Position numbers and translations under genes: made by a program
Notes under the pieces: generated by a model
Told to the model about the DNA's origin: nothing
The model's database searches: none
The model's input: the letters and a program-made list of their open reading frames with translations, nothing else
Part shown: positions 8,510 through 41,906 of the stretch, piece by piece
How the letters are laid out: each line of letters opens with the position of its first letter
Position numbering within the stretch: the first letter of the stretch is position 1
Assembly (NCBI GenBank): GCA_020029545.1
Contig: JAIBJL010000024.1
Span: 1 to 44,896 of the forward strand
DNA: 44,896 nucleotides
Direction: 5' to 3'
Source of the DNA: Gammaproteobacteria bacterium
Lineage (GTDB): Bacteria > Pseudomonadota > Gammaproteobacteria > Steroidobacterales > Steroidobacteraceae

Positions 8510-8794
8510 ATGAAAGAGGTGGACACCCTGCATTTACACAGCCCCTCGCAGCTTTCCCTGCATCTGAAGTCACTACGCAAATCGCGCAAGCTGACTCAGG
8601 CCGACCTGGCCAAACGTTTACAGATCACGCAGGAACGCTACTCCCAAATCGAGCGCAATCCTGAACTGATCGCCACCGGACGGCTGCTCGAGATTCTCGC
8701 CGTCCTCGGCGTGGATGTGCAGCTCAAATTGCGCCCACCCGAGAGTGCTCGCACAGCCACGCCAACGCCGACGCGCCGAGGTGAGGATTGGTGA
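8510..8794 (+). CDS. hipB: HipB-like XRE/HTH antitoxin
   Basis: LKSLRKSRKLTQADLAKRLQITQERYSQIERNP helix-turn-helix; ends in W; GTGA overlap with hipA. Confidence 0.88.
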   Translation: MKEVDTLHLHSPSQLSLHLKSLRKSRKLTQADLAKRLQITQERYSQIERNPELIATGRLLEILAVLGVDVQLKLRPPESARTATPTPTRRGEDW

Positions 8795-10155
8795 GCACGC
8801 TCGGTGTGTGGATGAACGGCCGCTACGTCGGCGCCTGGCAGCAGGTGCGCGGGGGGCGGGACCGTTTCCGCTATGACAAAGGTTGGATCTCCGATCCGCA
8901 AAGTCGAGCTCTTTCGCTGTCATTGCCGATGACCTCCGATGCTGCGATCACGAGCGCTGCGGTCGGGTACTACTTCGACAACCTTCTGCCGGACAGTCAG
9001 GGAATTCGGGATCGACTTCAGGCGCGATTCCACACGCGCTCAGCGAACACGTTCGATCTGCTCGAAGCCATCGGGCGCGACTGCGTCGGCGCCGTGCAGC
9101 TGCTACCCGAAGGAGAGGCGCCCAAGGGCTGGGACACGCTCAATCTGCAGCGCCTGAAACCCAAAGAGGTCGAGGCGATTCTGCGGGCGGTACCGACGGT
9201 TTCAGCACCGCTCTTGAACGGCACCGATGAGGGGGATGATTTGCGCATCTCACTCGCCGGTGCGCAGGAGAAGACCGCGCTGACCAAGATCGGCCGACAT
9301 TGGTACAGGCCGTTGGGCTCTACGCCGACGACGCACATTCTGAAACTCCCGCTGGGACTGGTCGGCAACCGCAGACTCGATCTTTCGCATTCCGTCGACA
9401 ACGAGTGGCTGTGCGCAGCGTTGCTGAAAGAGCTTGGATTGTCAGTCTCGAACACGGACATGGGTCAATTCGGCGATCAGCGCGCACTCATTGTGGAGCG
9501 CTTCGATCGTCGCTGGCAGAACGTCGGTGACGGTGATCCGCGCGCGGCCAACTTCGAGCCGCTCAAGGACACATGGATCGCGCGGCTGCCTCAGGAAGAT
9601 TTCTGTCAGGTCTCCGGGCGTCCTCACACTGCAAAGTACGAGAACGAAGGGGGACCTTCGATGCGCGATATTCTGAATGAGCTCGCGCGCGCCGAGCACC
9701 CCGCTGCAGATCAGCAACACTTCATCCTGTCGCAGTTGGTATTCTGGATGCTCGCGGCGACCGATGGACACGCAAAAAACTTCTCGATCTACCACCGTCG
9801 CGGAGGTGGCTTCGGCCTGACGCCGCTCTACGACGTCTTGTCGACCTGGCCAGTGATCGGAAAGCGTGCCGATCAACTCGACATTCGCGAGCTGAAACTT
9901 GCGATGGCCCTTCGCGGCAAGAACGCCCACTACAGAATCGTTGAGATCCAGCCGCGACACTTCCAGGCACTCGCGGATAACTATGCGGGCGCAGAGGCCT
10001 GGCCGGCGATGATCGAACTGGCGGGTCGCGTCGAGGGGGCGATTAAGGCGGTGGAGAAGCGACTACCGAAGGGATTCGCGGAATCCGTATGGGCACCCAC
10101 GTCCAAAGGGATGCTTGAGCAGGCGAAGTCGTTTCTCTCTTATGCGAAAGCGTAA
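8791..10155 (+). CDS. hipA: HipA family Ser/Thr kinase toxin
   Basis: YFDNLLPD, GRDCVGAVQL, ISLAGAQEKTAL, THILKLP, RLPQEDFCQ, ATDGHAKNFS, LTPLYDV. Confidence 0.95.
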   Translation: MSTLGVWMNGRYVGAWQQVRGGRDRFRYDKGWISDPQSRALSLSLPMTSDAAITSAAVGYYFDNLLPDSQGIRDRLQARFHTRSANTFDLLEAIGRDCVGAVQLLPEGEAPKGWDTLNLQRLKPKEVEAILRAVPTVSAPLLNGTDEGDDLRISLAGAQEKTALTKIGRHWYRPLGSTPTTHILKLPLGLVGNRRLDLSHSVDNEWLCAALLKELGLSVSNTDMGQFGDQRALIVERFDRRWQNVGDGDPRAANFEPLKDTWIARLPQEDFCQVSGRPHTAKYENEGGPSMRDILNELARAEHPAADQQHFILSQLVFWMLAATDGHAKNFSIYHRRGGGFGLTPLYDVLSTWPVIGKRADQLDIRELKLAMALRGKNAHYRIVEIQPRHFQALADNYAGAEAWPAMIELAGRVEGAIKAVEKRLPKGFAESVWAPTSKGMLEQAKSFLSYAKA

Positions 10156-31212: not shown

Positions 31213-34072
31213 TTAGAAGTTGACTCGGAAACGCAGACCATACTGCCGAGGCGGACGCAGCGTGGCCGCGATGATGCCGGACTGGTTCACCCCCGGCTCC
31301 GCCACATCGAGGGTCACGTCGTCTTCGATGTTGCGGATGTAGGCCGTCACGCTCCACTGGTCCTCGGGAGCGTTGTAGCTCAGCGTCGCATTGCTGCGGT
31401 GTTGCGACTCGACCCGTGAATAGAGGAAGTAGCTGGTGTTGAGTTCACGTTCGTCTTCCCAGCGGGTGTCGATCTGGGCGGCGATGCTGCCGCCGTTCGC
31501 CAGCGGAAAGTTCTGCTCCACTCCGAGGTTCACCGTCCACTCAGGCGCGTTGACCATCTGTTGCCCAGAGCAGTCGTTGGCGAAAGCCGCGCCCGGGTAA
31601 CGGCTGTTGACCGCCGGCGTGCAGCGCGAAGCCGCGTTGCCCGAGGCTCCCAGGAAGGCATTGGGAATCAGAAAGCTGTCGTAAACGGCGTCGAGGTATT
31701 GAATGTCGGCGCTCAGCCGGGTGTTCTCCCATGGGAGGAACGCGGTTTCCAGCTCCACGCCCCGGATGGTTGACGTACCGGCGTTGACTGTCGCGCCGAT
31801 CCTCAAACCCGCCGAGTTGAACAGGATGCTGCCGACCTGCTGGTCGTCGTAGTCATACTGAAACAGCTCCAGGTTCACGCGCAGGCGGTTGTCGATGAAC
31901 TCGTTCTTCGACCCCAATGTGTAGGCGATGACTTTTTCCGGGTCATAGCTGATGCCCAGAGGATCGGCCGGGTTGTTGCCGAAGAAGCCGCCGGACTTGA
32001 AGCCGGTGGCCACCGTCGCATAGAGCAGAGCATCCTCGCGCCAGTCCCATTCAGCGCCGACCCGATAACTGGTGTTGTCCCAATCCTTCGAGCCCACGGC
32101 CACGAAGCCGCCGGTCGCGCGCGCATCGGCCGGAGTAATGTCGGGCACGTCGCTGGCCCAGGTGCGAGTTGTCCCCACGTAGGGAGAGCGTGAGCCCGCT
32201 GCATCGTAGATGGCGGACAGGCTGTCGGTTTCCTTCTTCTCGGTGGTGTAGCGCAGGCCGGCGGACAGGCGGAAGGTGTCGGTGAGCGCCCAGGTCAGAT
32301 TGCCGAACACAGCCCAGGAGGTGTCATCGTTGTGCAGCTCCTGGTTGGTGATCGTATTGTTGCTGGATGGTGTGCCGGCGGGAACGCCGAGAGCAACGTT
32401 CGACGGCGTGCTGAAAGGGGTCAGGTAGGAGCGCCGGTCGTAAGTAGCGCCACCATCCTGTGTATCGTCGAAATAAAAAGCCCCAACGACGTAGCGGATC
32501 GACTGAGTCTGATCCGATGCGAATCTCACTTCAAAGGTGTACTGGTCATGGTCGACCTGTTCACGAACGTTGAAGCCGTTTGCAAACATGTAATCGATCG
32601 TGTCGTGGTGATAGGCCGGAATGGCCGTCAGGACGCCACCGAATACCTGCCAGTTCAGCTCCGCGCTGGCCGAGTAATATTCGTTGTGCCCGAAGGCACC
32701 CACTAGGCCCGGCGTGCCGCCCGGACCGTTCGGATAGTAGGGGTTGATGAGCGGCTGCTGATCGACCGTGCTGGTCCAAGGATCGCCGAAGAGACGGCCG
32801 GTGGCGGGGCAGCCCGAGTAGGAGGGCAGAGCGGTCACCGGTGCGCCGGCGCAATAGCCGGTGGAGCCGACGCCATGATTGTCGTCCTTGGTGTAGTCGG
32901 CGCGCACGATCAGGTCCACCGTATCGGAAGCCGCCCAGCGCAGCTGGCCGCGCACGCCCTGAGTGTCGGCGTCGCTCGAATCGTTGGAGAAGAAGCCGTC
33001 GCGCTGTTCCGACTGGAAAGCCACACGGGCAGCCAGACTGTCGGCCAGCCCCAGATTGATCGCGCCGTTGACGATCAGCTGGTCGTAGTTGCCGCGGTCG
33101 AGGCCCAGGTAACCGCTGTACTCACCCAGGATGGGTGCCGCGGTGATGATGTTGATGGCGCCACCGGTAGCGTTGCGGCCGTAGAGAATGCCTTGCGGCC
33201 CTTTGACGACTTCGACTCGGGCGAGATCGAAGAACTGCCCGAACGCGCCGACCGCGCGAGCCTGGTAGACCTGATCGACGTTGACCGCGATGGCCGGGTC
33301 GCCGAACTGGTTCCCGACCGTGGACGAGATGCCGCGCAGGCGCAGGCTGGTATAGGGGCCGGAATTGCGGGAAACCTGCAGCGCGGGCGCCATGCCGGCG
33401 AGATTCGCCAGCTCGGTGACGCCCTGTCGTTCCAGCGTTTCGCCGCTGACGGCAGTGATGGCGACCGCGGCCTGCTGGAGATTTTCCTGCGTGCGTTGAG
33501 CCGTGACCACGACTTCCTCGAGCGCAGCCTTGTTCTCTGCCGCGTCTGTCGACGAAGGAGAGTCTCGGCCTTCGGCCTGCGCTAACCTTATCCCGCGTCG
33601 TGATCTCCCCCATCTTCCCGCTGTCGTGAAATTCTTTCGCTGTCGTTCCGGAAAAAGAGTCGTCGCTTGCGCTGGCCTGCGCTCCGCGGACCTCTGCGTT
33701 GACCTCATCGTTCCGTTGTGCCGGCTCATCCTTCTCCGCGCCGCGCAGAGGGATGACTGCGGAACCGCGAGGCAGGATGCTGATGGTGTGGTCGTCGATG
33801 GGTTTGTAGGTCAGTTCTGTGTCGTTGAGAAGTTGCCGGAGGGCTTCTTCGAGCGTGAGGTCTCCGACTGCGCCGGATGTGCGGCGTCCTGCAACGTCCT
33901 CGGAGACAAAGATCAGGTGAATTTCGCGATCGGCCGCGAGCGTGCGAAGGGCGGGGGCGAGTCCTTGCGCCGGGATGCTGGTCTCTTTCTTGATGGATGC
34001 TTTGACATCGGCGGCGTGTGAGATGCTGATGATCGTCAGGCACGCCACGGCCGCAGCAACTGTTGTGCGCAT
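31213..34072 (-). pseudogene. TonB-dependent receptor with N-terminal STN signalling domain, split by a +1 frameshift near 33590-33730
   Basis: Frame A (ATG 34072, GGGGA RBS): signal peptide plus STN (IPAQGLAPAL, LEEALRQLL). Frame B: LEEVVVTAQR, VEVVKGPQGILYGRNATGGAINI, barrel ending PRQYGLRFRVNF. Could also be a sequencing error. Confidence 0.8.
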
Positions 34073-34149
34073 GAGGAGTTCCCCTGTAGTTATCGACTCA
34101 TTCCCCGCTTTCGTGGGGACGACGGTTGTTGCCGCCGGTTTCATGGGTG

Positions 34150-35517
34150 TTAGAGCGATTCCGTGAGTGAAAGGAAACTGGTCGTCAAATTTCTTTGGGA
34201 ACCCGTGGAGGACTCGCTCGCGGGCTGGTTGGTAAATTCGATCGCGCCGCCGTTCCTGCTGGGGGTCACGCCGAAGCGTTGGCGGAGGAATTCGACGATT
34301 CGGGTGGGGTCGGTCGAGGGGAATTCTCCGCTGATGTGGATGTCGTCTAGCGCGTGGTCTTTGATTGTGAGCTGACGGCGGTTGTAGCGGTTGAATTCTT
34401 CGAAGACTTCACCCAAGGGCGTGGCGTCGAAGATCAGCTTGCGATCAGTCCAGGCGGTAGCGGCGGCGACGTTGGCAAGTTCCGGGAGGGAGACCGCAAT
34501 CGGTGTGATCGTTACGTGTTGGCCGGCGATGAGAAATACCTCGCGTGTGATCTGCGCCACGCGGGCTGCTCCTTCTCCGGTGCTTCGCATACGTTCGTGA
34601 GCGAGTGTCGATGAAGGCGTCGAGGCTTGCGGTGCTGCTGAATTGTCTCGCTGCAGCGGTGGTCCAGAGCCTGCGTTTCCCGGGTCCTGCGGGCGATCCG
34701 TCAACCTCTCGCCGGCTAGTTCACCTTCGGGGGCGCGGGACAGTCCTGCAACTTTCGACTTCGGCACTACAGCCACCTTGCCTTCGATGACGGTGACGAT
34801 GGTGCCGGACGGTTTGCGGTATACGTCGAACTGGGTGCCGACGGCACGAACGGTTGCGCTGGCGCTTTGAACGATGAATGGGCGCAGGGGGTTTTTGGCG
34901 ACACTGAAGAGTGCTTGGCCCTGCAGCAGTTGGACTCTTCGTTCGTGTTCGGTGTAGTTGACCCGCAGGCGGGTGCGGGAGTTGAGCTGTACGGTGGAGC
35001 CGTCTTCGAGAACGATGGAACGTTGTTCGCCGATGTCGGTCGCGTAGATGTTGCGTTGGGTGTAGTGCCAGGTTCCGAAGCAAGTACCGATGACGAATAG
35101 CAGGCTTGCGGCGAGGGCGATGAATTTCCGACGGCGGGCCGTGTGTGCGGATTCGTGCTCGTGCGAGACGGAGCAGGCCTGGGTCTTGGCAGGATCTTGG
35201 CTCGGGGTCGAAGCCTGTTCCCGCTGCGCGGGTCCGGCCGTGTGGCAATAGGGCAAGTCCGGCGTCAATGAAACGACATTCGATTCGGCGTGGGCGATGA
35301 GTGCTTCGATGTCGGTGTGCGTGTGTTTGAGGTTGGCTGCGTCCTCCCAGAATGCGGTGACTTGCAGGTACGCCTGTATGTGTTGGGGGGAGTGGCGCAG
35401 CCAGGCAATGAATTCTTCACGGCCTGGCGTGCCGACTTCTCCTTCGGTGAAGTCGATGAACCAGGAGGAGGCTTCCTCGAGGACTTGGGTGCTGAGGGGC
35501 AGGCTGCGTTTCTCCAT
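34150..35517 (-). CDS. FecR-family anti-sigma factor/transmembrane sensor
   Basis: EEASSWF, WLRHSPQH, TM helix, TDIGEQRSIVLEDGS, VRAVGTQFDV, EEFNRYN, ISGEF; start at ATG 35517. Confidence 0.93.
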   Translation of the reverse strand: MEKRSLPLSTQVLEEASSWFIDFTEGEVGTPGREEFIAWLRHSPQHIQAYLQVTAFWEDAANLKHTHTDIEALIAHAESNVVSLTPDLPYCHTAGPAQREQASTPSQDPAKTQACSVSHEHESAHTARRRKFIALAASLLFVIGTCFGTWHYTQRNIYATDIGEQRSIVLEDGSTVQLNSRTRLRVNYTEHERRVQLLQGQALFSVAKNPLRPFIVQSASATVRAVGTQFDVYRKPSGTIVTVIEGKVAVVPKSKVAGLSRAPEGELAGERLTDRPQDPGNAGSGPPLQRDNSAAPQASTPSSTLAHERMRSTGEGAARVAQITREVFLIAGQHVTITPIAVSLPELANVAAATAWTDRKLIFDATPLGEVFEEFNRYNRRQLTIKDHALDDIHISGEFPSTDPTRIVEFLRQRFGVTPSRNGGAIEFTNQPASESSTGSQRNLTTSFLSLTESL

Positions 35518-35522
35518 GTGCC

Positions 35523-36083
35523 CTATTCCGTGCTTTGCATGTGTTGCTGGCAGTAGGTCATGGCTTTGATCAGATATTTCTTGGCCATGACGCGGGTGAC
35601 GCCGAAGCGGTTGCCGATTTGCTCGAGTGTCAGCCCTTCGCATCGATACATGAGCAGGGTGGCGTAGGCGCGTGGCGAGTATTGTTGCAGTCCTATGCCG
35701 AGCGCCTCGAACTTCTGTTGGAGCTGAACTTGGGTGTAAGGGTCGGTGTCGAAGCTGGCTTCAAGCGCGGTGGCGATGTCGTCGGGTTCGATGGGTATGG
35801 CGGTGACGGCTTGTTTGAGTGCGTGTTGGTGGAGGACGTGGCTTGCGACGGTGTGCAGGTAGGCCTCGGGGTTGCGGATGGCTTCGGTATCGGGAATGCG
35901 CAGGAGTCGTAAATAGACTTCTTGCATCAGGTCCTGGAGGTCCGCGGATGCCTGTGGAAGGCGTCGGGCGAGGAAGCGTCGAAGCTTGCGGCCGTGGGTC
36001 TTTTCGAGACCTGCGACGAAGGTGCGGCTAGCTTTCGCGATTGGAATTGGCTCTTTGGGAAGCACGTTGCTTCTCGAAAACAC
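35523..36083 (-). CDS. ECF sigma factor (FecI-like)
   Basis: LRRFLARR, DLMQEVYLRLL, NPEAYLHTVA, EGLTLEQIG HTH; upstream of fecR; start uncertain. Confidence 0.92.
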   Translation of the reverse strand: MFSRSNVLPKEPIPIAKASRTFVAGLEKTHGRKLRRFLARRLPQASADLQDLMQEVYLRLLRIPDTEAIRNPEAYLHTVASHVLHQHALKQAVTAIPIEPDDIATALEASFDTDPYTQVQLQQKFEALGIGLQQYSPRAYATLLMYRCEGLTLEQIGNRFGVTRVMAKKYLIKAMTYCQQHMQSTE

Positions 36084-36200: not shown

Positions 36201-36274
36201 GCAGATCTTGACTCCTGCGGGCATCGAAGGGGTGCGACTTTGGCTCGATTGCCACTGGCGCGGGCGCCAGTCTT

Positions 36275-36283
36275 TGTTAGACT
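36275..36283 (+). promoter_or_regulatory. Extended -10 promoter (TGnTAGACT), probably leaderless, for the metal-uptake operon
   Basis: The ATG at 36290 begins 7 nt after TAGACT; no SD visible. Confidence 0.5.
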
Positions 36284-36289
36284 CAGCCC

Positions 36290-36586
36290 ATGTCTTTTAC
36301 ACGGCTCCCTAAGCAGCAACGCTGGATACTGTCCTTCGTGGCAGCATTGTTCCTCGTTGCGCAGTTAGGGATCGCGACGCACTCGCTGCATCTGGACGGT
36401 GGCGGCAAGACCGAGGTGGTTTGCGGCTTCTGCGTCACTTCGCATGCGTCGATGGACGGACTGGCTCACGCTCCGACGCTGAGGTTTTCTTTCGCGCCCT
36501 CCGAAGTTTTGAGCGATGGCATAACTGTCATCGCGTCATTCGAGTTTCCTTCCTCCGCGCGCGTCCGCGCGCCTCCTGCCTGCTGA
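36290..36586 (+). CDS. DUF2946/CruR/CutF-like leader protein (signal anchor, HxxH, CxxC, C-terminal RAPP)
   Basis: Hydrophobic residues 12-29, H31/H34, C45-G-F-C48, H52, RAPP at 93-96 of 98 aa; first gene of a metal uptake operon. Confidence 0.8.
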   Translation: MSFTRLPKQQRWILSFVAALFLVAQLGIATHSLHLDGGGKTEVVCGFCVTSHASMDGLAHAPTLRFSFAPSEVLSDGITVIASFEFPSSARVRAPPAC

Positions 36587-36679
36587 CACCGCTGTTGCCG
36601 TGCGCTTGCCATTGAGGCAATGCGCTCGTTTGCGTCGTACCGCCGCGTCGACGCGTGTCATTCATGCTGGAGATCTTCA

Positions 36680-37897
36680 ATGCACCGTTTCTCTCACGCC
36701 GGCCGTCGCGCCGCGCATCTCACGATGTTCACCTGTTTGTTGTCATGCGTCACCGCAATCGCGCCGCGACCTGTAGCGGCGCAGGGCGCGATTACGAGTA
36801 ATGCTTTCAATCCCGCGCTCAGTCTGATTCTGGACGGCAAGTACACCAACTACTCGCGCGATCCACGCGACTATCAGATCTCCGGTGTGCTGCTGGGCGA
36901 GGAAGCAGGGCTGCCGTCCCGCGGACTCTCCCTGGGTGAAACGGAACTGGCGGCAAGCGCCAACGTTGACGACAAGTTCTACGGTCAGGTCACACTGTCG
37001 ATCTCCGACAACGACGAAAAAACCGACCTCAATGTCGAGGAAGCTTTCGTTCAGACCACAACCTTGCCCCAGGGCCTCACCGCGCGTGCCGGCAAGTTCC
37101 TCTCCGACATCGGGTATCAGAATTCAAAGCATTCGCATACCTGGGATTTCGCAGATCAGCCGCTCGTCTACCGGGCTCTGCTCGGCGAACAGTTTGGCGA
37201 TACCGGCGTGCAACTCAAATGGGTCGCACCGACCGCGTTGTTCGTCGAGTTGGGCGGCGAAGCATTTCGTGGCAGCGAATTTCCCGCCAGCGGAGCGGGG
37301 CACGATGGTGTCGGTGCTTACACCGCGTTCGCCCACCTCGGCGGCGACGTGGGCGACACCCATTCCTGGCGTGCAGGTGTCAGCTATCTCGATACCGACG
37401 CAGTCAATCGGGAAAGCACGCTGCCCAGCGACGATATCGTGGCATTCACCGGCCAGAGTCGGGTGTGGATCGCGGATGCAATCTGGAAATGGGCGGATCA
37501 TGGCAATCCCAAGACGCGCAACTTCGTACTGCAAGGCGAATATCTGCGTCGCAAGGAATCGGGAAATCTCGCAACGCGTCTGGCGACGGCTGCGTACGAC
37601 GGCACGCAGAGCGGTTTCTACGTGCAAGGGGTTTATCAGTTCATGCCGCGCTGGCGAGCCGGCGTGCGCTATGACCGCCTGAGTGCAGACAACACGGTCG
37701 GGCCGCTGCCGATTGCGACACCCCTCAGCGACGACCGCGACCCATCGCGCGTTACCGCGATGGTCGACTTCTCCAACAGCGAGTTCAGTCGCCTACGCTT
37801 GCAGCTCGCCGACGATCGCTCACGCGCGCGCAGCGACCGGCAATTGATCCTGCAATACGTCTTCAGTCTGGGGGCCCACGGCGCGCACCAGTTCTGA
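36680..37897 (+). CDS. Outer membrane beta-barrel protein associated with Zn/metal ABC uptake
   Basis: Signal peptide; NAFNPALSLILDG, VEEAF, HSHTWDFADQP, SEFSRLRLQ, C-terminal SLGAHGAHQF; GGAG RBS before ATG 36680. Confidence 0.85.
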   Translation: MHRFSHAGRRAAHLTMFTCLLSCVTAIAPRPVAAQGAITSNAFNPALSLILDGKYTNYSRDPRDYQISGVLLGEEAGLPSRGLSLGETELAASANVDDKFYGQVTLSISDNDEKTDLNVEEAFVQTTTLPQGLTARAGKFLSDIGYQNSKHSHTWDFADQPLVYRALLGEQFGDTGVQLKWVAPTALFVELGGEAFRGSEFPASGAGHDGVGAYTAFAHLGGDVGDTHSWRAGVSYLDTDAVNRESTLPSDDIVAFTGQSRVWIADAIWKWADHGNPKTRNFVLQGEYLRRKESGNLATRLATAAYDGTQSGFYVQGVYQFMPRWRAGVRYDRLSADNTVGPLPIATPLSDDRDPSRVTAMVDFSNSEFSRLRLQLADDRSRARSDRQLILQYVFSLGAHGAHQF

Positions 37898-37928: not shown

Positions 37929-38828
37929 ATGCAAAAAATATATTTTCTGATGCTCCTCGGCATTGTGTTCAATGTCCCGGCGAATGCCGCGTTACGTATC
38001 TTTTCCTGCGAGCCCGAATGGGCGGCGCTGGCAAAGGAAATCGGCAACGACAAAGTCGATGTCACGTCCGCCACCACGCCCGATCAGGATGTGCACTACA
38101 TTCAGGCACGCCCCAGCCTGATCGCACAGATGCGTCGTGCCGATCTCGTGGTGTGCACCGGCGCAGATCTCGAGGTCGGTTGGTTGCCGGTGCTGCTGCG
38201 GCAAGGCGGCAATGCGAAGGTGCAGCCCGGGCAGGATGGATTTTTCGATGCATCCTCCGCGGTGCAATTGCTCGAAGTGCCCACATCGGTGGATCGGTCC
38301 ATGGGCGATGTGCATCCTTACGGCAATCCCCATTTGCAGCTCGACCCGCACAACATCGCGAAGGTCGCGGCAGCGCTTGCAGCGCGCATGGAGAAACTTG
38401 ACGCAGCAGACGCCTCACTCTTTCAGCAGCGGTCGACCGATTTTCTGCTGCGCTGGAACCAAGCCATCGACAAGTGGACGCAGGACGGCGCAGGTCTCAA
38501 AGGTATGCAGATCGTCACGCATCATCGCAGCTACGTGTATCTCGACCATTGGCTCGGGCTTGAAGAGATCGGCAGTCTCGAACCCAAGCCCGGCATCGAG
38601 CCGACCACCGGGCATCTTGCGCAACTGCTCGATCAGGTGAAGAACAAGCACGTCAAGGCAATCGTGCGCTCTTCCTATCAGGACAGTCGCGCGTCGGACT
38701 GGTTGTCGAGCCGCACCGGCATCAAAGCCATCGTATTGCCGCACACAGCGGGCAGCGTACCGGAAGCGAAGGATCTGTTTGCAATGTTCGACGTGATCAT
38801 CGCGCGTCTGAACGAGGCGAACAAATGA
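37929..38828 (+). CDS. Metal ABC transporter substrate-binding protein (ZnuA/TroA cluster A-I)
   Basis: DVHYIQARPS, GADLEVGWL, DVHPYGNPH, THHRSY, EPKPGIEP. Confidence 0.92.
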   Translation: MQKIYFLMLLGIVFNVPANAALRIFSCEPEWAALAKEIGNDKVDVTSATTPDQDVHYIQARPSLIAQMRRADLVVCTGADLEVGWLPVLLRQGGNAKVQPGQDGFFDASSAVQLLEVPTSVDRSMGDVHPYGNPHLQLDPHNIAKVAAALAARMEKLDAADASLFQQRSTDFLLRWNQAIDKWTQDGAGLKGMQIVTHHRSYVYLDHWLGLEEIGSLEPKPGIEPTTGHLAQLLDQVKNKHVKAIVRSSYQDSRASDWLSSRTGIKAIVLPHTAGSVPEAKDLFAMFDVIIARLNEANK

Positions 38829-39616
38829 ATACCGATGCGCTCGACGTCAGTATTCTCGGCCCGGCGTTGCTCGCTGGAGTACTGGTGCTGGCGAGCCACG
38901 TGCCGCTCGGTCGCCAGGTGCTCAAGCGCGGGATTATCTTCATCGATCTCGCCATCGCCCAGGCGGCGGGCCTGGGAGTCATCGCTGCAGGAGTATTTGG
39001 CTGGGATCCGCATGGACTCTCCGCACAGGCTGCAGCCGTCCTGGCCGCACTGCTGGGAGCGTCGTTGCTGGCATGGACCGATTCGAAGTTTGGCGAAGTG
39101 CAGGAAGCAATCATCGGTGTGTTCTTTGCTTTGTGTGCAACGGGCGGGCTGATCCTGCTCGCCAACAATCCGCATGGCGGCGAGGAGCTGAAAGATCTGC
39201 TGGTCGGACAGATCTTGTGGGTGGATATTCACAACCTGCTGCCGGCAGCCATTGTGAGTGTGATCGTACTCATTGCGTGGTTCGGATTTCGCGCCAGCCT
39301 CGGCCGGCCGGGCTTCTATCTGGTCTTTGCGCTGAGCGTAACGGTATCCGTGCAGTTGGTGGGTGTTTATCTGGTGTTTGCCAGTCTCATCGTGCCTGCA
39401 TTGGCCACACGTCAATTGAATGACCGCGGCGGACTCCTCTGGGCGTACTCGATCGGGTTTGTCGCGTATTGTGTCGGCCTCGCGGCTTCGGCATTGTTCG
39501 ATCTGCCGACCGGCGCAGTAATCGTGTGGAGTCTTGCGGCTGTTGGAATGATCGCTCGCGGTGCGATGAGCAAGCGGCAGCTGGCGTTGGATCACCAGAC
39601 CTCATCTCGGAATTGA
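38825..39616 (+). CDS. Metal ABC transporter permease (ZnuB-like)
   Basis: Multiple TM helices; VLKRGIIFIDLAIAQ, LLVGQILWV, GVYLVFASLIVPA, FDLPTG; ATGA overlap with the SBP gene. Confidence 0.92.
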   Translation: MNTDALDVSILGPALLAGVLVLASHVPLGRQVLKRGIIFIDLAIAQAAGLGVIAAGVFGWDPHGLSAQAAAVLAALLGASLLAWTDSKFGEVQEAIIGVFFALCATGGLILLANNPHGGEELKDLLVGQILWVDIHNLLPAAIVSVIVLIAWFGFRASLGRPGFYLVFALSVTVSVQLVGVYLVFASLIVPALATRQLNDRGGLLWAYSIGFVAYCVGLAASALFDLPTGAVIVWSLAAVGMIARGAMSKRQLALDHQTSSRN

Positions 39617-39877
39617 TGAGCGGGCGCAACACCGCGGTCGCCGTCATCTGCGCGGGCATGACGAAAAGGGAAAGTGGCGCTGATGTTTCGACACGTTCGG
39701 AATCAGAGAACTGGAGTCGATCGATGGATTCATCCCGGCTGCGTCAGAATATCGAAGCTGTCTGGCAGGCGGATAGGAAGAATAAACACCCTTTTCCGCT
39801 GACACGACGCATCGAAGTCCCTAGCGAGGGACATCGCGTTCCTTGCTCATGCATCAATGCGGGTGGGTAGCGCACGG

Positions 39878-39941
39878 CCTTACCGGGGGCGCACGCGCCT
39901 GCCGCTCAAGGGGTTCGAGTATTCGATAGATTGTTGCTTGA
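39878..39941. repeat. 64-bp direct repeat, copy 1
   Basis: 59/64 identical to 41451-41514 by manual alignment. Confidence 0.9.
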
Positions 39942-40179
39942 TTGGGATTGCATTCGACGAGTGGGGAGGCTGCCGATTCCACTCGCGGCTCATGCATGAA
40001 GCGATGATAGGCCTCGATGGCACGCTCGCGATCAGCGTGAAACATGGGTAGTGCCAAGTCCGTCGTTACCCAGTCATCGACGGGTAGTTGGGCTTGAAGA
40101 AGATATTCTGACGATGATTGTCCCGCAGCGTGACGTGATACACGGTGCCGTGCGCATGCAGGCGAAGTGGCCTTCGCCG
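39942..40179 (-). pseudogene. Internally deleted REP-associated (Y1/RAYT-like) transposase remnant
   Basis: N-terminal RPLRLHAHGTVYHVTLRDNHRQNIFF joined in another frame to DWVTTDLALPMFHADRERAIEAYHRFM..SPLVECNPN; HUH motif and catalytic Tyr missing. Confidence 0.7.
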
Positions 40180-40247
40180 AACGCTTCCGCTCGCCACTGC
40201 GTGCAGATGTCCTTCCAAGCACGGTGCATCATCCGCCTGCGTCATCC

Positions 40248-40661
40248 TCAAGGCGCTGGCAGACCCTGGAGCGCGTAGGCTGGGCCAACAGTTGCCTTCT
40301 CGCGCATCGGTCGGATAGCGGCGTATTCCGGCGAATTCCACCAGTCCTTCAGGTTCTTCATGCTCGGGAACTGGACAATGATGATGCTGCCCTTGGGCGG
40401 TGCGGAACGGGGCATATCGATCGGCAAGGGAACGCCCGCGGCAACGACATGGGAGCCATAGCGTGCTCCGGCCTTGCCGGCTGCCTCCTGGTACTGCCTG
40501 AACAGCTCGGCGTCGAGCACTTCCTGAACGTTGCCCACAAAAAAAGCCGGTGCCGTCGCGGTCTGCGCATGTAGCGCGCCGACGCCAGCGGCGCCCAGAA
40601 CAATGCCGACGAAGCCGGCCGCCGTGATGTGAACCAACTTCGTTCGATATTGTGATTTCAT
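40248..40661 (-). CDS. DUF1330 domain protein with signal peptide
   Basis: GAAGVGALHAQ signal; IIVQFPSM..WWNSPEYAAIRPMR motif; start at ATG 40661. Confidence 0.88.
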   Translation of the reverse strand: MKSQYRTKLVHITAAGFVGIVLGAAGVGALHAQTATAPAFFVGNVQEVLDAELFRQYQEAAGKAGARYGSHVVAAGVPLPIDMPRSAPPKGSIIIVQFPSMKNLKDWWNSPEYAAIRPMREKATVGPAYALQGLPAP

Positions 40662-41328: not shown

Positions 41329-41450
41329 TTTTCTCGCGCCTCCATTTTTGACGTCGGTCTGCGGATAGGAAGAATAAACGCCCCTTTGCGCAGCAGCCAG
41401 CCTAATAACGTACGGCTGGCTGCATTCCAGCACCGCATCCTCGCGGGCGA

Positions 41451-41514
41451 CCTTACCGGTGGCGCACGCGCTTGCCGCTCAAGGTGTTCGAGTATTCGAT
41501 GGATCGTTGCTTGA
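41451..41514. repeat. 64-bp direct repeat, copy 2
   Basis: 59/64 identical to 39878-39941. Confidence 0.9.
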
Positions 41515-41906
41515 GCTTCGATGCGGGTGCCGCGCATGGACGCACCAATGCCGCGAGCGCAACACGCCAAATATCGGCTCTCTGTTTTTTTGCACGATCG
41601 CATCGTTCCGTCCCGAACATATCGGGAGGCTGGACTGCTGATGCGTTGTCCCGGTTTCCCGGCGGCACCGTTCGTCGCGCTACAAGCCCGCTCTGCAGAA
41701 GCAACATATATCGACCGATGTTCGTATACCGACCCCGCTTGCGCATGCAGGCAGTGGCGCAGAGGTGCCGGCCTTGAGAGAATCCCGGCCCGGCGCTACG
41801 CTCCGGGCGTTTTTCCTTGGCCGCCGACGTTTCGCTCATGCACCGCTGCTTCGCGCACGCGGCGGCACGACAAGGCACATGCAACTACCTTCCTTCGAGG
41901 TTTGAA

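Follow-up and report, generated by a model that had tools for sequence, protein, structure and literature searches.

In a Steroidobacteraceae genome, an open reading frame (ORF) of 98 codons stands directly ahead of genes for an outer membrane barrel, a metal-binding protein and a permease. What does so small a gene do at the head of what looks like a zinc uptake operon? A first-pass annotation of this stretch of DNA (here called the window; 44,896 nucleotides) read it as a leader peptide of the CruR/CutF type, i.e., an exported nascent chain whose metal site controls ribosome arrest at a C-terminal RAPP motif and thereby the downstream genes. It proposed Zn (or Co/Ni) as the signal and regarded the pairing with a ZnuA/ZnuB-like system as uncharacterised. 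Metal-gated arrest has so far been shown for copper alone, and no zinc riboswitch has been described, according to Roy et al. (PMC9426467); a zinc version, if true, would be a post-transcriptional zinc switch.

The pairing is indeed uncharacterised, yet already on record. The source data of Fujiwara et al. 2025 (PMC12992588) list leader-porin pairs, including the leader of one of our loci (L018; row 4219), and the 'carbohydrate porin' class is enriched there, with 54 RAPP versus 5 AAPP peptides among the matches listed. The leader family is tabulated by annotation only ('carbohydrate porin', 'zinc-regulated TonB-dependent receptor'), without comment; the terms zinc, ZnuA and porin are absent from the main text, which does not connect the family with Zur or zinc. 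They are also absent from three supplementary files each of PMC9426467 and PMC9973294, although the neighbour table of the latter (File S1), which is not one of these files, may include the neighbourhood. Searches of the literature available without subscription found no paper on a zinc-sensing arrest leader.

The leader and its conservation

The leader gene contains the following elements:

36290..36586, plus strand: leader ORF, 98 aa, a predicted metal-sensing arrest peptide (ORF, family profile, spacing)
36323..36379, plus strand: hydrophobic export signal or anchor, residues 12-30, behind a basic N-terminus (mean Kyte-Doolittle 2.06)
36380..36433, plus strand: predicted His2-Cys2 metal site, H31, H34, C45 and C48 (column conservation)
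36566..36577, plus strand: predicted RAPP arrest motif, residues 93-96 (conserved tail motif)

Every residue that the annotation had singled out (H31, H34, C45xxC48, H52 and RAPP at 93-96) is present at 36290-36586. The gene order was confirmed as well: 93 nt separate the leader stop codon from the ATG at 36680, where the barrel gene begins, and genes for a cluster A-I binding protein and a permease follow. Between CxxC and RAPP lie 44 residues, close to the claimed spacing of about 45 and to the 45 of CruR; two more residues precede the stop codon. The export signal was called by hydropathy only, and profile searches of Pfam and NCBIfam placed the leader in no family.

The annotation had also suggested a survey of motifs and neighbouring genes across genomes, and this bore it out in two samples. 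For the first set, we took the best 80 of 190 barrel relatives from a genome scan with the window barrel; the closest named ones are labelled Steroidobacteraceae and Povalibacter. A frame ending in R[AGS]PP lies immediately 5' of the barrel gene in 63 of the 80 loci, against a chance level of 29 in 1615 control windows (1.8%). These 63 seed leaders were picked by tail motif and hydrophobicity only, without selection on His or Cys. A leader profile adds five with RDPP, QAPP or RPPP tails and unchanged spacing (L012, L053, L076, L030 and L040), which brings the leader to 68/80 loci; it is absent from 12, one of these for lack of DNA. The binding protein follows in 77/80 and the permease in 73/80 loci, with the misses at contig ends.

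The second sample consisted of 400 genomes drawn evenly over Gammaproteobacteria. The barrel occurs in 95 of the 400 (a tally that includes one unpublished genome, G039, which enters no other result), and 89 barrel loci were examined, 4 of them shared with the first set. A leader is present at 72/89 loci and absent at 13, and 4 loci are cut off upstream. Among these 72 leaders, 63 end in RAPP and 6 in RGPP, 70 have a Cys at 47-50 residues from the Arg, and 53 have the full CxxC. The leader profile matches 9,167 clusters at E<=0.001, a count that may include other CruR-like leaders.

In the alignment of 69 leaders (68 from the first set plus that of the window), the proposed His/Cys site held for its core: H31 and C45 are invariant (69/69), C48 is found in 63, and a second His in 62, spaced HxxxH in 59 (the family norm) and HxxH in 3. 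H52 was ruled out as a metal ligand, as its column holds His in only 5/69 members. The ligand order His-x3-His...Cys-x2-Cys resembles the zinc-binding HHCC motif of integrases. Some leaders (L023, L025, L033, L036, L038 and L060) lack a second Cys in its usual place (CxxH, Cx5C, single Cys); therefore, the metal site can swap Cys for His. The tail motif (RAPP in 42 leaders, RGPP in 21, RDPP in 3, others in 3) stands 1-9 residues before the stop in all 69, and the columns of the signal segment are Leu-rich, with Q25 in 51/69.

The His-to-Cys distance varies from 8 to 33, and the first Cys lies 47-50 residues upstream of the Arg in 69/69 leaders. Because C45 is fixed in this way, the metal site should lie outside the tunnel and channel by the time the ribosome reaches RAPP. 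Such a fixed distance would be unexpected, given an unconserved linker (mean column identity, 23%), if the stall were not gated by metal and the peptide served as a metal chaperone in the periplasm or, like SecM, monitored the capacity for export; so would invariant ligands and enrichment in genomes without detected Zur (see below). RAPP peptides do stall intrinsically, and translocation force releases the Sec/YidC monitors (PMC12992588); all three downstream proteins require export or membrane insertion, and the leader-like protein ZrgD is itself Zur-controlled (PMC9817125), all of which would suit a chaperone or monitor. On balance we consider such a role highly unlikely. Arrest-based control by the leader is, on these sequence comparisons, very probable.

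The uptake cassette and the candidate metal

Three genes follow the leader:

36680..37897, plus strand: predicted 16-stranded, plugless porin (alignment-based model, pLDDT 93; fold match OprP, E 3.5e-12)
37929..38828, plus strand: cluster A-I binding protein with four invariant His (56, 129, 135, 199) (Pfam ZnuA, E 3e-44)
38825..39616, plus strand: ZnuB-like permease without 16-18 residues at the ATPase coupling helix (ABC-3, E 2e-22; alignment)

Homologues of the first protein carry the annotations 'zinc-regulated TonB-dependent receptor' or 'carbohydrate porin'. Sequence search found no solved relative of the barrel, and Pfam gave only a weak match to BBP2 (E 0.004) and none to Plug or the TonB barrel. 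The best fold matches of the model are OprP, OmpT and chitoporin. It predicts 16 long strands and no plug, versus 22 strands and a plug in TonB-dependent receptors, and we rejected the latter label on this basis. The protein has a conserved H151-x-H153 and a C-terminal H400-x-x-H403. A start at ATG 36620 was discarded: it has no Shine-Dalgarno, whereas ATG 36680 has GGAG and a signal-like N-terminus. If our reading of the locus is true, the members of this barrel family (>7,800 matches), now labelled TonB receptors or sugar porins, would be corrected to probable zinc porins.

The four His of the binding protein are invariant (160/160), and its top solved relatives are YcdH and AdcAII-type proteins. 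In the permease, only 10 residues take the place of 28 in E. coli ZnuB (ZnuB 144-171), a region that includes the ATPase coupling helix of ZnuB (154-162; PMC12236471). The shortened segment (44-49 residues) recurs in 107/112 cassette permeases, versus 64 residues in the canonical permease of the same genome. No ATPase gene was found in the window cassette, nor one co-oriented after the permease in the 80 first-set loci (59 with at least 1.5 kb downstream); 8/89 loci of the class sample, with more distant barrels, do include one. The label of a canonical ZnuABC system was dropped, as both the ATPase gene and the coupling helix are missing. Because of these two absences, the cassette may import independently of ATP, although its components are of ABC type, and the permease without a coupling helix raises the question of its energy source. 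On contig C340 of the same genome (4048-8379, minus strand) lies a further, complete cluster A-I ABC operon, which includes genes for two binding proteins and several exported ones; its ATPase could be borrowed in principle. C340 yielded no leader of the window type and no Zur-type box at <=1 mismatch.

Other features of the window surround this operon. Two similar, non-genic-looking stretches (39850-40340 and 41450-41560) flank DUF1330 and glutathione S-transferase genes, and their frames read like what we take to be remnants of REP-associated transposases. Divergent from the leader operon (31213-36083, minus strand) are genes for a FecI-like sigma factor, a FecR-like anti-sigma factor and a TonB-dependent receptor. 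The N-terminal signalling part of this receptor (33122-34144) and its body (31213-33729) are in different frames, which suggests a frameshift or an assembly error. A HipA-family kinase gene (8788-10155, plus strand) adjoins glmS-glmU, the ATP synthase operon and parAB-gidB.

Evidence on the metal comes largely from related cassettes. A Vibrio campbellii record holds homologues of all three genes (35% identity for the barrel, 44% for the binding protein and 37% for the permease, all computed with the V. campbellii sequences); it lacks the leader and has a Zur-type box that matches perfectly. This omr-znuA2-znuB2 cluster was named in V. campbellii by PMC9817125, where the V. parahaemolyticus cluster is reported to be induced 283- to 1034-fold by zinc limitation. 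The ZnuA of the Vibrio cluster supports growth in TPEN via His69/His148 (PMC3794297); the V. campbellii binding protein has, by our own count, His68 and His147.

Zur-type boxes were scored at <=2 mismatches with a pattern drawn in part from sites printed in PMC4176598. In the first set, such a box lies upstream of 7/11 leaderless loci (largely Xanthomonadales, so not independent) versus 1/68 leader loci. In the class sample, it was found at 10/13 leaderless loci (6 directly and 4 at the heads of longer operons, which hold COG0523, AztD-like or TonB-receptor genes) versus 10/72 leader loci; of the three leaderless loci without a box, one is cut by a contig end and one has a split barrel gene. 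Zur itself was detected in the genomes of 13/13 leaderless cassettes (those with enough upstream DNA; from 9 families, with kin not independent) versus 20/72 leader-bearing ones, the background being 143/400. Leader and Zur are not mutually exclusive, since 10/72 leader loci have a box and 20/72 are in Zur-positive genomes. Loci L193-L195 are leaderless cassettes with COG0523 GTPase and AztD-like genes and Zur-type boxes, and two of the genomes with such cassettes (G011 and G230) also hold a leader-type one.

No Zur was detected in the window genome (a 91% complete assembly; the Zur model may miss divergent Zur), which encodes Fur and an Irr-like protein. The best Zur-type site upstream of the window leader has 3 mismatches, and none of the four one-mismatch sites genome-wide is at an obvious zinc gene. 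The only other small ORF of this genome with the leader spacing (C478:5060-5371) has HxxxH, CxxC, a spacing of 44 and RAPP. It precedes a gene for a ZnuD-like TonB-dependent receptor (PDB ZnuD, E 1e-39; next family, 9e-8) and has, at its stop, a 9-base complement to the Shine-Dalgarno of its target.

Could the same arrest switch respond to another signal, i.e., a metal other than zinc (Cu, Co, Ni, Mn) or the redox state of CxxC? In CruR, CxxC is a proven copper-specific site (PMC9426467). PMC9973294 already proposes Ni/Co variants of CutF-like proteins, and His-only or His-rich ones precede HupE/UreJ Ni/Co genes. The window binding protein also matches Mn-type models, and its four invariant His are one more than in ZnuA-type sites. 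Against this stand the Zur boxes of homologous cassettes and the zur, AztD-like and COG0523 genes next to them, the induction of the Vibrio cluster by zinc starvation (PMC9817125), and the second leader ahead of a ZnuD-like gene; in addition, no copper gene recurs among the neighbours of the 80 first-set loci. Another signal is therefore unlikely in our estimate. Of the metals first proposed, zinc is the best supported by comparison and is probably the one sensed, with Co/Ni, like Cu, less favoured. In many lineages the leader would do Zur's job. If true, it is a candidate answer to how zinc uptake is rationed in genomes without detected Zur, which make up 257/400 of the sampled Gammaproteobacteria.

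Predicted output of the leader

Two further elements concern expression of the operon:

36275..36283, plus strand: TG-n-TAGACT, which resembles an extended -10 element and ends 6 nt upstream of the leader ATG (hexamer survey)
36573..36672, plus strand: predicted RNA switch, in which 36573-36589 pairs with 36655-36672 (pair probabilities 0.91-1.0)

A -10-like hexamer stands 5-8 nt before the ATG of 17/61 leaders versus 201/8712 arbitrary ATGs (2.3%) and 0/79 barrel starts, a placement that suggests a leaderless mRNA for the leader gene. A stricter scan for a two-hexamer consensus promoter found none upstream, and a terminator-like hairpin at 36254-36271 is at chance level (6 found, 3.5 expected).

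The 5' arm of the switch consists of the Pro-Pro, tail and stop codons, and the 3' arm contains the porin Shine-Dalgarno (GGAG, 36669-36672). Given the predicted pairing of these codons with the Shine-Dalgarno, a ribosome stalled on the leader likely means that the importer is ON. Folding had been proposed in the first-pass annotation as a check for occlusion of the ribosome-binding site, and the outcome at the window is divided. The Shine-Dalgarno is predicted to pair with the probabilities given above, whereas the fold of the whole region is no better than that of shuffles (z -0.03). A short duplex test showed no gain over recoded tails (-10.6 vs -11.5), and masking lowers the mean unpairing of the Shine-Dalgarno from 0.42 to 0.31, which argues against the switch.

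Further evidence comes from 61 loci with gaps of 30-140 nt. Their complementarity to the Shine-Dalgarno region is maximal between +3 and +30 relative to the Arg codon. The tail codons are biased to CTC, TCC and GCC, with Leu encoded by CTC in 62% of 48 codons versus 20-25% elsewhere. Own pairing exceeds cross-locus pairing in 53/61 loci and synonymous recoding in 49/61. The predicted cost of opening the start site is 12.0 kcal/mol when the leader is free, 6.7 with a ribosome stalled at RAPP and 11.6 with one stalled 30 nt earlier; the values for the window are 9.7, 6.4 and 8.6.

The same leaders could also act on zinc through Rho-dependent termination as the main output, with Shine-Dalgarno pairing secondary. 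CruR operates in this way (PMC9426467), and the C/G ratio over the final 120 nt of the leader is >1.5 in 40/69 loci versus 1/79 stretches inside the barrel gene. Such C-richness is, however, also expected from Pro-rich codons and an anti-Shine-Dalgarno, and the ratio in the window is only 1.43. The locus-specific complementarity (53/61) points to selection on pairing, and the gaps between leader and barrel are mostly 45-100 nt versus 162 nt in CruR. We judge this alternative to be quite unlikely.

Our full model, in which the leader works as a zinc-sensing ribosome-arrest switch that keeps the porin ribosome-binding site open, has in our view a somewhat better than even chance. The nascent leader would enter the Sec channel via residues 12-30, and the ribosome would stall at RAPP, its P and A sites occupied by the two Pro codons, as in CruR (PMC12992588). 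From the geometry, the His2-Cys2 site would at this length be clear of the tunnel and the channel. With no zinc, the stall would persist over 36573-36589, leaving the Shine-Dalgarno free, according to the predicted folding, and the importer would be made. With zinc bound, the site would fold and pull the chain free, and the ribosome would terminate two codons later. The tail would then pair with the Shine-Dalgarno and shut the operon, perhaps with Rho termination next. That zinc means OFF is suggested by the polarity of CruR and by the controlled genes, which encode an importer.

Comparison with known systems

The Vibrio omr-znuA2(vpa1307)-znuB2 cassette has the same three genes as the window, no ATPase and the same shortened permease (V. 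campbellii), but it has a Zur box in place of the leader.

A closer parallel to the leader itself is zrgD, the first gene of the Zur-repressed Vibrio zrg operon (zrgDABCE), which encodes a DUF2607 protein of unknown function (PMC9817125) and is listed as hypothetical in PMC6103462. Four DUF2607 genes of one genus (L189-L192) look like arrest leaders: all of them precede zrgA, lie directly behind a perfect Zur-type box and have RAPP or RSPP at the end; Pfam ZrgA was confirmed in both downstream genes scanned, of the four. In a local search of small size, the leader profile matches all four proteins at E 4e-10 to 3e-5. Conversely, the window leader has no match to DUF2607 (PF10795), two of the 69 family members match weakly (best E 0.0026), and the class sample contains DUF2607 in only 2/401. 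Like the window leader, ZrgD is about 97 aa long and His-rich, with a hydrophobic N-terminus and a RAPP/RSPP end, and heads a zinc-uptake operon. It differs in having a single Cys 45 residues before the Arg and extra His in place of CxxC, in being additionally under a Zur box, and in preceding zrgA.

More broadly, a widespread family of His-x3-His...Cys-x2-Cys RAPP sensors, acting as nascent chains, might be the main regulator of zinc uptake in many Zur-less Gammaproteobacteria, reused before porin-ZnuA-ZnuB, ZnuD and ZrgA, with ZrgD a member and the cassette an ATPase-free importer. We offer this proposal tentatively, at slightly less than an even chance; if true, it would give ZrgD a testable role.

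CruR (Bp2923) of Bordetella pertussis is a DUF2946 (PF11162) protein (PMC9426467) whose arrest was demonstrated in PMC12992588. An HMM search against DUF2946, suggested in the first-pass annotation, did not place the window leader in this family: it has no match at E<=1 in the Pfam profile search. Weak matches at E<=1 were found for 38/69 members of the leader family (best E 1.4e-4), and the C478 leader reaches 19.5 bits, short of the 23.7 cut-off. The reading as an arrest leader of the CruR/CutF type nevertheless fits in its export signal, Cys site, fixed spacing, C-terminal RAPP and first position in the operon. Judged from its sequence, the small conserved gene is a real leader of the CruR/CutF kind, which heads a zinc-type uptake cassette and falls outside the DUF2946 profile.

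With CruR, the window leader shares the N-terminal hydrophobic export signal, a CxxC 44-45 residues before a near-terminal RAPP (44 here, within the CruR-like range of 45 +/- 2), a place at the head of a metal-import operon, and the predicted polarity, in which stall is ON and metal is OFF. It is smaller (98 vs 145 aa) and, unlike CruR, has an invariant His pair directly behind the hydrophobic segment. CruR-like proteins head copper-gene operons, and the targets of CruR are a TonB receptor and PepSY; here, the leader is also first, but its targets are zinc-type uptake genes, namely a plugless porin and ZnuA-type and ZnuB-type proteins. The output would be Shine-Dalgarno pairing, compared with Rho termination, shown for CruR, and the metal would be zinc instead of copper.

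CutF of Rhodobacter capsulatus (PMC9973294; bioRxiv 10.1101/2025.02.05.636593) likewise carries its sensor on an exported nascent chain, at a distance of about 45 residues from the Pro-rich end, and exerts control via a stem-loop that covers the Shine-Dalgarno of the next gene. The CutF-like rule set of PMC9973294 asks for <150 aa, a signal peptide, PP among the final 15 residues, a co-oriented gene at a distance of up to 1000 nt and a Cys/His site. The window leader conforms to it, with 98 aa, PP at 95-96, a co-oriented gene after 93 nt, a Cys/His site and a signal called by hydropathy. CutF needs its signal, whereas sensing without the signal is possible in CruR. CutF also differs from the window leader in having CxxxC and in its EF-P dependence. 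In CutF, copper binding leads to a stall that turns a detoxifying oxidase ON; the importer in the window would need the opposite polarity.
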